Below, piece after piece: positions 9,527 to 15,015 of a DNA stretch of 64,000 nucleotides (position 1 is its first letter; each line of letters opens with the position of its first letter). A program made the position numbers and the translations under genes. The notes under the pieces were generated by a model, which was given only the letters and a program-made list of their open reading frames with translations, searched no databases and was not told where the DNA came from. Source of the DNA: Escherichia coli O157:H7 (GTDB taxonomy: Bacteria > Pseudomonadota > Gammaproteobacteria > Enterobacterales > Enterobacteriaceae); NCBI RefSeq assembly GCF_013167455.1, contig NZ_CP038328.1, one strand, 5' to 3'.

Positions 9527-11139
<1,613 letters not shown>

Positions 11140-11185
11140 TTATTCAGTCGATAGTAACCCGCCCTTCGGGGATAGCAAGCATTTT

Positions 11186-11227
11186 TTGCAAAAAGGGGTA
11201 GATGCAATCGGTTACGCTCTGTATAAT
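11186..11227 (+). promoter_or_regulatory. guaB promoter region: -10 TATAAT at 11222-11227, AT-rich upstream tract, candidate pur-box-like element at 11202-11217
   Basis: TATAAT hexamer 44 bp upstream of the guaB ATG; aTGCAAtCGgTTaCgc is a weak (11/16) pur box match. Confidence 0.4.
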
Positions 11228-11270
11228 GCCGCGGCAATATTTATTAACCACTCTGGTCGAGATATTGCCC

Positions 11271-12737
11271 ATGCTACGTATCGCTAAAGAAGCTCTGACG
11301 TTTGACGACGTTCTCCTCGTTCCTGCTCATTCTACCGTTCTGCCGAATACTGCTGACCTCAGCACCCAGCTGACGAAAACTATTCGTCTGAATATCCCTA
11401 TGCTTTCCGCAGCAATGGATACCGTAACGGAAGCGCGCCTGGCTATTGCTCTGGCTCAGGAAGGCGGTATCGGCTTTATCCACAAAAACATGTCCATTGA
11501 ACGCCAGGCAGAAGAAGTTCGCCGTGTGAAAAAACACGAATCTGGTGTGGTGACTGATCCGCAGACTGTTCTGCCAACCACGACGCTGCGCGAAGTGAAA
11601 GAACTGACCGAGCGTAACGGTTTTGCGGGCTATCCGGTCGTTACCGAAGAAAACGAACTGGTGGGGATTATCACCGGTCGTGACGTGCGTTTTGTTACCG
11701 ACCTGAACCAGCCGGTTAGCGTTTACATGACGCCGAAAGAGCGTCTGGTCACCGTGCGTGAAGGTGAAGCCCGTGAAGTGGTGCTGGCAAAAATGCACGA
11801 AAAACGCGTTGAAAAAGCGCTGGTGGTTGATGACGAATTCCACCTGATCGGCATGATCACCGTGAAAGATTTCCAGAAAGCGGAACGTAAACCGAACGCC
11901 TGTAAAGACGAGCAAGGCCGTCTGCGTGTTGGTGCTGCAGTTGGCGCAGGTGCGGGTAACGAAGAGCGTGTTGACGCGCTGGTTGCCGCTGGCGTTGACG
12001 TTCTGCTGATCGACTCCTCCCACGGTCACTCAGAAGGCGTTTTGCAGCGTATCCGTGAAACCCGTGCTAAATATCCGGATCTGCAAATCATCGGCGGCAA
12101 CGTGGCAACAGCTGCAGGTGCACGCGCTCTGGCAGAAGCTGGTTGCAGCGCGGTTAAAGTCGGTATCGGCCCTGGTTCTATCTGTACGACTCGTATCGTT
12201 ACTGGCGTAGGTGTTCCGCAGATCACTGCCGTTGCTGACGCAGTTGAAGCCCTGGAAGGCACCGGTATTCCGGTTATCGCAGATGGTGGTATTCGCTTCT
12301 CCGGCGACATCGCCAAAGCTATCGCCGCTGGCGCAAGCGCGGTGATGGTAGGTTCCATGCTGGCGGGTACTGAAGAATCTCCGGGTGAAATCGAACTCTA
12401 CCAGGGCCGTTCTTACAAATCTTACCGTGGTATGGGTTCCCTGGGCGCGATGTCCAAAGGTTCCTCTGACCGTTATTTCCAGAGCGATAACGCTGCCGAC
12501 AAACTGGTGCCGGAAGGTATCGAAGGTCGCGTAGCTTATAAAGGTCGCCTGAAAGAGATCATTCACCAGCAGATGGGCGGCCTGCGCTCCTGTATGGGTT
12601 TGACCGGCTGTGGTACTATCGACGAACTGCGTACTAAAGCGGAGTTTGTACGTATCAGCGGTGCGGGCATTCAGGAAAGCCACGTTCACGACGTGACCAT
12701 TACTAAAGAGTCCCCGAACTACCGTCTGGGCTCCTGA
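11271..12737 (+). CDS. guaB: IMP dehydrogenase
   Basis: Track ORF begins at 11202; the recognised N-terminus [16 protein letters not shown] begins at ATG 11271; CBS pair and catalytic Cys loop. Confidence 0.96.
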
Positions 12738-12805
12738 TTCTCTTCGCCCGACTTCATGTCGGGCGATTTATATTATCTGTTTCACTTGCCTCGGAATAAG
12801 CGTCA

Positions 12806-14383
12806 ATGACGGAAAACATTCATAAGCATCGCATCCTCATTCTGGACTTCGGTTCTCAGTACACTCAACTGGTTGCGCGCCGCGTGCGTGAGCTGGGTGT
12901 TTACTGCGAACTGTGGGCATGGGATGTGACAGAAGCACAAATTCGTGACTTCAATCCAAGCGGCATTATTCTTTCCGGCGGCCCGGAAAGTACTACTGAA
13001 GAAAACAGCCCGCGTGCGCCGCAGTATGTCTTTGAAGCAGGCGTACCGGTATTCGGCGTTTGCTATGGCATGCAGACCATGGCAATGCAGTTGGGCGGTC
13101 ACGTTGAAGCCTCTAACGAACGTGAATTTGGCTACGCGCAGGTTGAAGTCGTAAACGACAGCGCACTGGTTCGCGGTATCGAAGATGCGCTGACCGCAGA
13201 CGGTAAACCGCTGCTCGATGTCTGGATGAGCCACGGCGATAAAGTTACCGCTATCCCGTCCGACTTCGTCACCGTAGCCAGCACCGAAAGCTGCCCGTTT
13301 GCCATTATGGCTAACGAAGAAAAACGCTTCTATGGCGTACAGTTCCACCCGGAAGTGACTCACACCCGCCAGGGTATGCGCATGCTGGAGCGTTTTGTGC
13401 GTGATATCTGCCAGTGTGAAGCCCTGTGGACGCCAGCGAAAATTATCGACGATGCTGTAGCTCGCATCCGCGAGCAGGTAGGCGACGATAAAGTCATCCT
13501 CGGCCTCTCTGGTGGTGTGGATTCCTCCGTAACCGCAATGCTGCTGCACCGCGCTATCGGTAAAAACCTGACTTGCGTATTCGTCGACAACGGCCTGCTG
13601 CGTCTCAACGAAGCAGAGCAGGTTCTGGATATGTTTGGCGATCACTTTGGTCTTAACATTGTTCACGTACCGGCAGAAGATCGCTTCCTGTCAGCGCTGG
13701 CTGGCGAAAACGATCCGGAAGCAAAACGTAAAATCATCGGTCGCGTTTTCGTTGAAGTATTCGATGAAGAAGCGCTGAAACTGGAAGACGTGAAGTGGCT
13801 GGCGCAGGGCACCATCTACCCTGACGTTATCGAATCTGCGGCGTCTGCAACCGGTAAAGCACACGTCATCAAATCTCACCACAACGTGGGCGGCCTGCCG
13901 AAAGAGATGAAGATGGGCCTGGTTGAACCGCTGAAAGAGCTGTTCAAAGACGAAGTGCGTAAGATTGGTCTGGAGCTGGGCCTGCCGTACGACATGCTGT
14001 ACCGTCACCCGTTCCCGGGACCAGGCCTTGGCGTTCGTGTTCTGGGTGAAGTGAAGAAAGAGTACTGTGACCTGCTGCGCCGTGCTGACGCCATCTTCAT
14101 TGAAGAACTGCGTAAAGCGGACCTGTACGACAAAGTCAGCCAGGCGTTCACCGTCTTCCTGCCAGTACGTTCCGTTGGCGTAATGGGCGATGGTCGTAAG
14201 TATGACTGGGTTGTCTCTCTGCGTGCTGTCGAAACCATCGACTTTATGACCGCACACTGGGCGCATCTGCCGTACGATTTCCTCGGTCGCGTTTCCAACC
14301 GCATTATCAATGAAGTGAACGGTATTTCCCGCGTGGTGTATGACATCAGCGGCAAGCCACCAGCTACCATTGAGTGGGAATGA
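12806..14383 (+). CDS. guaA: GMP synthase (glutamine-hydrolysing)
   Basis: Track ORF 525 aa; GATase domain plus ATP-PPase SGGVDS motif. Confidence 0.97.
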
Positions 14384-14407
14384 TTTGACCCTGCACTATG
14401 AATGAAC

Positions 14408-14438
14408 AAAACCCTCTGTTACTACAGAGGGTTTTTTA
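14408..14438 (+). terminator. rho-independent terminator after guaA
   Basis: aaaaccctctg-ttacta-cagagggtttttt. Confidence 0.7.
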
Positions 14439-14475
14439 TCTTCAAGAATTATAGGCTTGAAGTTACTAACATCGA

Positions 14476-15015
14476 TTAATTAAACCAGCTGTCCGATTTA
14501 TTCTCTTCTGCTTTGCCCACGCTTTTCATCAGATCGCGACCGCCTTCAGTCATATTTCTGTTGGCGTCAGCTTCAGATTGCACGACATCAGTTTGCGCGG
14601 CTTTGTGCTTCAGCTCCTGATCGATAAATTCGTTTTCTCGCTTAACGCGGGCTTCTTCTTTTGCCAGCGCCAGTTTTTGTTTCTGAATCTCTAAGCTGCG
14701 TAGCTCATCTTCATAACTTTGATCGCGTTTTTTGTCCGCAGTGGCTTCGGCGTCCAGTTTATCCTGACGAGCTTTCTTATTTGCCGCTGCCGTTGCCGCT
14801 CTTTTGTTAGCGGCAGCCTGGGCATTTGCGCGACGTTGCTTCTCTTGCTGGATTTCCCTGTTGCGCTCCGCGACCCATTCGTCATGCTGCCTTTGCTCTT
14901 CATTTTTACCTTGCTGTTCCGCTTCTGCGACAGCAGAGAGTTGATCCTGCAATGATGAGGCGATAGCCGGATAGCTTAAGGAGGCTAAGATGGCGCAAAG
15001 AAAAACTTTCTTCAT
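14476..15015 (-). CDS. yfgI: YfgI, secreted/periplasmic coiled-coil Lys/Glu/Gln-rich protein
   Basis: Track ORF 179 aa; signal peptide; charged low-complexity body. Confidence 0.85.
   Translation of the reverse strand: MKKVFLCAILASLSYPAIASSLQDQLSAVAEAEQQGKNEEQRQHDEWVAERNREIQQEKQRRANAQAAANKRAATAAANKKARQDKLDAEATADKKRDQSYEDELRSLEIQKQKLALAKEEARVKRENEFIDQELKHKAAQTDVVQSEADANRNMTEGGRDLMKSVGKAEENKSDSWFN

Follow-up and report, generated by a model that had tools for sequence, protein, structure and literature searches.

The guaBA locus is a textbook operon, a site of live-vaccine attenuation and part of an antibiotic-target pathway, and to our knowledge all of its known control acts at the guaB promoter. 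In Escherichia coli O157:H7, the spacer between guaB and guaA encodes a GC-rich hairpin, which raises the question of what this structure does to RNA polymerase or to the transcript once initiation is over. A first-pass annotation of this DNA had offered two answers, a partial terminator or an element for RNA stability or processing. Our search of the full-text literature found no paper on a hairpin in the guaB-guaA spacer; the sequencing papers from 1985 may mention dyad symmetry there.

We read the sequence directly in a 64-kb stretch of the O157:H7 genome (hereafter the window, whose coordinates are used throughout; Table 1). The 501 bp around the site were 100% identical to strain PV15-279, in which guaB and guaA are annotated, and the 68-nt spacer was identical to that of MG1655. 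By the MG1655 annotation, guaB (488 aa) occupies approximately 11271-12737, and the longest guaB open reading frame starts further upstream, at 11202 (511 aa). The block between the tail of the hairpin and the guaA ATG reads CACTTGCCTCGGAATAAGCGTCA; we took 12778-12805 to be the guaA translation initiation region, with a weak Shine-Dalgarno-like GGAA at 12793-12796, 9 nt 5' of the ATG. The stem of the operon terminator begins 24 nt 3' of the guaA stop codon.

Table 1. Features of the guaB-guaA spacer and its flanks, in window coordinates
Feature	Position	Strand	Basis or remark
guaB stop codon (TGA)	12735-12737	+	sequence
Spacer opening between stop and stem (TTCTCT)	12738-12743	+	would be covered by a ribosome at the stop codon
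Hairpin 5' arm (T-CGCCCGAC)	12744-12752	+	sequence, folding
Loop (TTCAT)	12753-12757	+	sequence
Hairpin 3' arm (GTCGGGCG-A)	12758-12766	+	sequence, folding
U/A-rich tail (TTTATATTATCTGTTT)	12767-12782	+	sequence
Conserved block (TGTTTCACTTGCCTCGGAAT)	12778-12797	+	followed by a short spacer to the guaA ATG (to 12805)
guaA coding sequence	12806-14383	+	downstream cistron; its transcription has to cross the hairpin
Canonical strong guaA/operon terminator	14408-14441	+	12-bp hairpin, -17.2 kcal/mol, T6

The frame that follows the guaB UGA stays open for 23 codons (12738-12809) and ends in a TGA overlapping the guaA ATG (ATGA). We judged this open frame to be fortuitous, as genera differ both in spacer length modulo 3 and in the stop codon. 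A bacterial SECIS element or stop-codon read-through was rejected on the same variation in spacer length and on the use of TAA as the guaB stop in 6 of 29 genera.

The hairpin consists of a perfect 8-bp stem at 12745-12765, to which a ninth pair, T12744-A12766, may be added, so that the stem starts 6 or 7 nt past the guaB stop depending on whether this pair is counted. The sequence agreed with the first-pass annotation on the 8-bp GC stem, whose first base is the eighth nucleotide after the stop, and on the A/T-rich stretch 3' of it, which is the tail listed in Table 1; the end coordinate given there, 12770, takes in the stem (ending at 12765 or 12766) together with the first bases of the tail. 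Folded alone, the hairpin reached -17.7 kcal/mol (z = -6.4), and none of 200 shuffled sequences did as well. It was also the dominant structure in the fold of the 91-nt spacer region (z = -3.6). A scan for terminator-like structures flagged it with nine pairs, seven of them G-C, so in stability and composition it is the kind of GC-rich RNA hairpin expected of an intrinsic terminator.

Perfect GC-rich hairpins of at least 8 bp occurred at seven distinct sites in the window (nine matches when nested ones are counted), versus approximately 1.9 expected from a first-order Markov simulation. The chance of finding one in a given 68-nt spacer is therefore about 0.002. The exact element was present in one copy in the window and once per genome in 5,425 of 5,426 complete E. 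coli genomes, a distribution that ruled out a REP, BIME or ERIC repeat. The hairpin is thus neither a chance occurrence nor a copy of a repeat family.

Several other readings of the structure were rejected. All matches to Rfam families (Hrs12/MicF, JA04, CRISPR-DR9 and Yfr1) fell below the gathering threshold, the best being Hrs12 with 24.7 versus 70 bits; Hrs12 is the Erwinia MicF orthologue beside ompC, unrelated to guaB, and the match reflects a generic likeness to terminator hairpins. A terminator for the opposite strand was dismissed on the lack of a T-tract past the hairpin on the minus strand. The minimum-free-energy fold of the E. coli sequence paired the last guaB codons (UCUGGGC) with the guaA Shine-Dalgarno region (GCCUCGGA). 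This long-range pairing showed no covariation, its helices 1-3 were 70-95% paired by conservation alone with many broken cells, and it was also missing from the RNAalifold consensus.

To follow the hairpin across species, we searched with the GuaB C-terminus, kept one genome per species and extracted the sequence after the guaB stop from the resulting 80 loci, which covered the Enterobacteriaceae, Erwiniaceae, Pectobacteriaceae, Yersiniaceae, Hafniaceae, Morganellaceae, Pasteurellaceae, Aeromonadaceae, Vibrionaceae and Orbaceae. A stable hairpin lay 5-20 nt past the guaB stop in most of 81 loci (about ten gammaproteobacterial families). Across these 81 loci, the best hairpin in the first 60 nt after the stop had a median of -16.2 kcal/mol, compared with -6.7 for dinucleotide shuffles and -10.4 kcal/mol for guaB coding windows, and 67 of the 81 loci outperformed all 20 of their own shuffles. 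The stems were unrelated in sequence between families, yet they still paired: CGCCCGG in Enterobacteriaceae and Erwiniaceae, GTGGCCC in Photorhabdus and Xenorhabdus, CGGGGC in Aeromonas, GGTGGGCT or AAAAGAGCGG in Pasteurellaceae, and GAACCCGGTA in Dickeya. Loops varied freely among genera in both sequence and length (3-8 nt), and the distance from stop to stem was 6-13 nt in Enterobacteriaceae.

An alignment of 29 Enterobacteriaceae and Erwiniaceae sequences showed the helix to be 92.5% paired, with compensatory changes at six of nine pairs, among them a change from G-C to A-U in Escherichia and two arm-swapped variants (L014 and L023). Besides a 2-pair helix in the coding end of guaB, this was the only helix in the RNAalifold consensus. 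Conservation of the hairpin in other enterobacteria, by which the first-pass annotation had proposed to judge its idea, was thus observed in about ten families, through differing stems and compensatory changes. These data also bear on whether the palindrome acts as DNA, bound by a transcription factor or nucleoid protein, and not as an RNA element. GCCCGG/CCGGGC is near-invariant in Enterobacteriaceae and Erwiniaceae while the loops vary, which would suit a binding site, but the wholly different, still pairing stems of other families and the arm-swapped variants argue against one. Of the known guaBA regulators (PurR, DnaA, CRP and Fis), none is known to have a site that resembles the palindrome. 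We consider a role as a protein-binding site in DNA very remote.

The sequence following the stem, a T-rich tail in most families, pointed to a terminator. The 9 nt after the stem contained a median of five T, versus 2.9 expected from composition, and six or seven in most Enterobacteriaceae. Tails were similarly T-rich with or without an adjacent guaA, which argues for a terminator type rather than a bare exonuclease barrier. Relatives often have better U-tracts than E. coli (such as TTTTGTTATT, TTTTTTATTT and TTTTTCC), and several lineages have textbook terminators at this position: Yersinia artesiana, with a 13-bp stem followed by TTTTTTATTT, and Aeromonas, with CGGGGC...GCCCCGTTTTT. Two points run counter to this interpretation: the hairpins after guaB in Vibrionaceae lack a T-rich tail, and the tail could instead be kept as an A/U-rich enhancer of guaA translation. 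The E. coli tail may also serve as such an enhancer or as a single-stranded target for RNase E.

The hairpin is not always followed directly by guaA. In Pasteurellaceae, one or two extra open reading frames separate it from guaA, and here it appears to end a separate guaB transcription unit. These extra frames (L039-L054) lie approximately 30-1100 nt after the guaB stop; one encodes a small protein with a lipoprotein-like signal (MKK...C), and in some loci the next frame encodes a protein of about 220 aa that looks HAD-hydrolase-like by eye. In Orbaceae, guaA was not found downstream of guaB within the fetched flank. Spacers of 167-185 nt with inserted structured sequence were seen in two Yersinia loci (L026 and L030) and in Acerihabitans (L027), and Yersinia artesiana (L028) has a short, 75-nt spacer with a strong terminator. 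Wherever guaA is not directly adjacent, the hairpin would be a plain guaB terminator. Taking these results together, the structure is best read as a guaB 3'-end hairpin of the intrinsic-terminator type that Enterobacterales, Aeromonadaceae and Pasteurellaceae have inherited.

How well would such a hairpin terminate in E. coli? The tail (UUUAUAUUAU) has six T in its first 8-9 nt, only three of them contiguous, and the tail score was 3.4 for the guaB hairpin versus 4.8 for the guaA terminator. The U-tract segment of the spacer is TTTATATT; we conceived a variant with an improved tract as TTTTTTTT. Strong terminators carry a bubble-edge motif, GC(U)7RU, according to the HUB model (bioRxiv 10.64898/2026.05.29.728758). 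By eye, the register G12763-C12764 / GAUUUAU / A12772-U12773 matches the GC and RU dinucleotides with four of seven U, and registers phased on the end of the stem lose either GC or RU. No register with both edge dinucleotides exceeded 4-5 of seven U, so the match to the motif is poor. This poor match and the run of only three U both count against termination at the guaB hairpin, which, on sequence alone, should be a weak terminator in E. coli.

A weak tract could also mark a relic, that is, a vestigial guaB terminator left over from separate guaB and guaA units and without effect in E. coli today. The degenerate U-tract, the lack of a termination-type 3' end in E. coli Term-seq lists and the apparent role of the same hairpin as an ordinary terminator at the end of guaB in lineages that lack an adjacent guaA would all fit this idea. 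Sequence variation within Escherichia told a different story. Between E. coli and E. albertii, the spacer showed 0 differences in 68 positions, against 21% at flanking third-codon positions (99/460 in guaB and 97/460 in guaA), a rate that predicts about 14 changes in the spacer. The 90-nt region 12726-12815 was unchanged in 5,411 of 5,425 E. coli genomes, with any change at all in only 14, whereas the surrounding 501 bp were at least 99% identical in only 3,227 E. coli genomes. A relic would decay; a constrained spacer in which compensatory changes keep the pairing argues against one, and we regard a relic as improbable.

Purifying selection acts on the whole spacer: besides the stem, it takes in the tail and the region where guaA translation starts. 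The conserved block is near-invariant in Enterobacteriaceae, its core [CT]GGAA being kept as far as Yersinia, Photorhabdus and Providencia, and the conservation of 12778-12797 far exceeds the needs of a Shine-Dalgarno site alone. In E. coli strain F138 (L093), which is one of the 14 genomes with a change in 12726-12815, a rare G-to-C change at the equivalent of 12758 breaks only the loop-closing pair.

We then looked for RNA ends at the hairpin, which the first-pass annotation had proposed as a check. The curated Term-seq lists of Adams et al. 2021 (LB at OD 0.4, LB at OD 2.0 and M63) contained no 3' end 3' of the guaB hairpin in any of the three conditions, including the positions 7-9 nt past the stem, and the supplements for SMRT-Cappable-seq and TERMITe had no guaB entries. 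In E. coli, this check therefore gave no support. The sole guaB-proximal Term-seq entry was a "primary" 3' end at MG1655 2632596 on the minus strand, seen in LB at OD 2.0 only. We placed it by the MG1655 annotation (guaB at 2632604-2634070, guaA ending at 2632535) and by the sequence context in the table; it corresponds to C12745, the first base of the 5' arm and 8 nt after the stop, upstream of the hairpin. The lack of a listed end after the stem means that E. coli termination was at best inefficient under those conditions.

The consensus for an elemental pause of RNA polymerase is G(-10) Y(-1) G(+1). C12745 fits this motif, which chance alone would place at about 1 in 32 positions; by eye, in the one relative compared, Kluyvera, where the spacing differs, the motif register is not kept. 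If a ribosome were positioned on the stop codon, its 3' edge would also lie close to the 12745 end. This end could be due to a pause, to trimming at the edge of a ribosome, or to decay or cleavage. The same study recorded a Rho-dependent termination region inside guaB, at MG1655 2633953 on the minus strand (approximately 11388 in the window), about 117 nt into the annotated gene, with a Rho score of 2.2 and a significance score of 5e-5 (Adams et al. 2021).

The other function named in the first-pass annotation would work without termination. The transcript would be cut in the A/U tail (for example by RNase E), the hairpin would block 3'-to-5' exonucleases, and the guaB segment would outlive that of guaA. 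Protection of upstream cistrons by hairpins is an established mechanism, as in malE-malF with its REP element and in the Rhodobacter puf operon. The REP/BIME in malE-malF and the puf hairpins are likewise stable intercistronic hairpins at the 3' end of the upstream cistron; unlike REP, the guaB hairpin occurs once per genome and has a terminator-like T-rich tail. The minimum-free-energy fold does place an unpaired A/U-rich stretch after a stable hairpin, selection covers the whole spacer and not the stem alone, and RNA ends map at the hairpin in two species. However, stabilization should leave 3' ends in abundance on the 3' side of the hairpin base, none of which appear in the E. coli Term-seq lists, and it needs no T-rich tail, yet the tail is kept even without an adjacent guaA. 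We consider stabilization or processing without termination unlikely.

The second species with mapped ends is Dickeya dadantii. A table from nanopore sequencing of native RNA (Table S2D) gives 3535519 as a putative termination site and names guaB as its upstream gene; cotranscription of guaB and guaA was validated in this species (PMC9239193). In the final D. dadantii map, there is no internal terminator at this place but instead an internal start site at 3535527 labeled "strong+pred" (PMC9239193), so the two ends are separated by just 8 nt at the guaB hairpin. The start and stop coordinates given imply a D. dadantii spacer of about 87 nt, and 11 Dickeya loci had near-invariant spacers of 86-88 nt. 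With the spacing of D. oryzae, on which placement of the ends rests in lieu of the sequence of strain 3937, a 10-bp stem lies 26 nt from the guaB stop, and the 3' end would be the last T of AATTTTT in the U-tract. This is 7 nt after the stem, where an intrinsic terminator is expected to release its transcript. The 5' end at 3535527 would fall inside the 3' arm. The D. oryzae sequence has a -10-like TAAACT in the hairpin loop.

A start site at the hairpin would suit a different role, in the expression of guaA. The hairpin would lie at, or close to, the start of an RNA specific to guaA, arising from an internal promoter or from cleavage at the 5' foot, and would protect it from 5'-end-dependent decay or insulate the guaA ribosome-binding region from guaB sequence. 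The E. coli 3' end at 12745 coincides with the 5' foot, so that a cut there would leave an RNA starting with the hairpin, and the D. dadantii start site maps to the hairpin. The genes inserted after the hairpin in Pasteurellaceae mean that guaA is probably transcribed there from a promoter further downstream, and a -10-like TATATT/TATTAT occurs in E. coli at 12769-12776. By contrast, a scan of 10900-14800 found no sigma-70 promoter-like site on the + strand, there is no -35 element, and the Dickeya 5' end, lying inside the 3' arm by D. oryzae spacing, may be a structured, TEX-resistant processed end. Mutations in guaB are also said to be polar on guaA, as Lambden and Drabble reported in 1973, which counts against a guaA-specific RNA. 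We see a role as a guaA expression module as rather unlikely, slightly more so than stabilization.

We returned to termination and asked how the nearby stop codon would affect it. When a strong terminator was placed 5 bp from a stop codon, its efficiency fell from approximately 90% to less than 10%, because the terminating ribosome prevents folding of the hairpin; full efficiency required a distance beyond 27 nt, and termination returned once translation was uncoupled (Li et al. 2016, PMC4824070). The guaB hairpin, 6-7 nt from its stop, lies within the ribosome-repressed range of those constructs (PMC4824070). They combined a synthetic reporter with the strong lambda tR2 terminator, whereas at guaB a native hairpin is followed by a weak U-tract, and baseline termination efficiency there is probably already low.

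The closest parallel that we found is the rph-pyrE attenuator. In MG1655, in the wild-type reading frame, the rph TGA is followed by 5 nt, the hairpin AAGGCGAC/GTCGCCTT and eight T in a 65-nt spacer. The layouts match: a stop codon, 5-7 nt, a 9-bp GC hairpin and a U-rich tail, with both spacers leading to a Shine-Dalgarno site and the ATG of a nucleotide-biosynthesis gene. In both cases, the stem begins within a few nucleotides of the upstream stop (6-7 nt for guaB and 5-7 nt for rph-pyrE). The two differ in that rph-pyrE has eight uninterrupted U and a stem of -14.2 kcal/mol, whereas guaB has an interrupted U-tract and a stem of -17.7 kcal/mol. UTP-dependent regulation has been shown experimentally for rph-pyrE, whereas the guaB-guaA case is known here from its sequence layout. 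Jensen reportedly tied pyrE read-through to the proximity of the ribosome to the hairpin in 1993. Read-through into pyrE depends on how near the terminating ribosome gets to the hairpin (PMC2784333).

Internal terminators with read-through have been described genome-wide (PMC9239193). The gcvTHP and pelD-paeY-pemA units of D. dadantii and rpsU-dnaG-rpoD likewise have a GC hairpin and a U-rich tail between cotranscribed genes; such leaky terminators tune expression within the operon, and the downstream gene relies on read-through. For such leaky internal terminators, 3' ends and a drop in coverage have been measured, whereas the curated Term-seq lists show no such end for E. coli guaBA. An internal leaky terminator or attenuator is nonetheless a well-known kind of element, and it is the one that we favor for guaB-guaA: we put the chance at about even that the guaB hairpin is of the intrinsic-terminator type and works as a leaky intercistronic attenuator inside the guaBA operon. 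Three observations on RNA ends weigh against this, namely, the absence of an end 7-9 nt after the stem in the Term-seq lists, the position of the only E. coli end (12745) upstream of the hairpin, and the final D. dadantii map, in which a strong start site 8 nt upstream takes the place of an internal terminator.

A leaky attenuator would work as follows. After transcribing the GC stem, RNA polymerase would meet the interrupted U-tract UUUAUAUU, where a minority of polymerases would release and yield a guaB-only RNA whose 3' end is capped by the hairpin. The majority would read through into guaA, owing to the poor U-tract and to a stem only 6-7 nt after the stop. A ribosome finishing guaB would cover or melt the 5' arm, and termination should therefore rise when translation lags behind transcription. 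Our data establish the structure, its conservation with covariation, the selection on the spacer and the layout shared with rph-pyrE; we infer that termination takes place at the guaB hairpin in E. coli, how efficient it would be and that it would depend on translation. In E. coli, the hairpin is probably a weak, ribosome-suppressed (leaky) terminator or attenuator. Of the two functions proposed at first pass, the terminator fits the conservation and the T-rich tail, and this class of element is probably right; the missing Term-seq end after the E. coli stem is the part that did not come out as proposed. A role in setting the guaB:guaA ratio is plausible, and any constitutive effect on that ratio is probably small in E. 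coli under standard growth.

A regulated form of the leaky attenuator would sense guanine nucleotides or translation, as a purine counterpart of rph-pyrE; we think this distinctly improbable, a little more so than a relic. Here, polymerase would pause at C12745 while awaiting GTP for the G-rich stem, and low GTP would lengthen the pause. The guaB ribosome would then reach the stop codon and cover the 5' arm, and read-through into guaA would increase. With high GTP or lagging translation, the hairpin would form and some transcripts would end. If true, guaA, which encodes GMP synthetase, would be controlled at a further level, distinct from the guaB promoter.

An RNA element that is conserved and under selection between guaB and guaA would mean that the guaBA operon is also controlled after initiation. 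Its effect could be a modest uncoupling of the two enzymes, IMP dehydrogenase and GMP synthetase, or silencing of guaA upon failure of guaB translation. The locus also offers a natural test case for the leakiness that a nearby stop codon and an imperfect U-tract confer on terminators. Should the effect prove negligible in E. coli, the structure is simply a well-conserved hairpin at the end of a gene.
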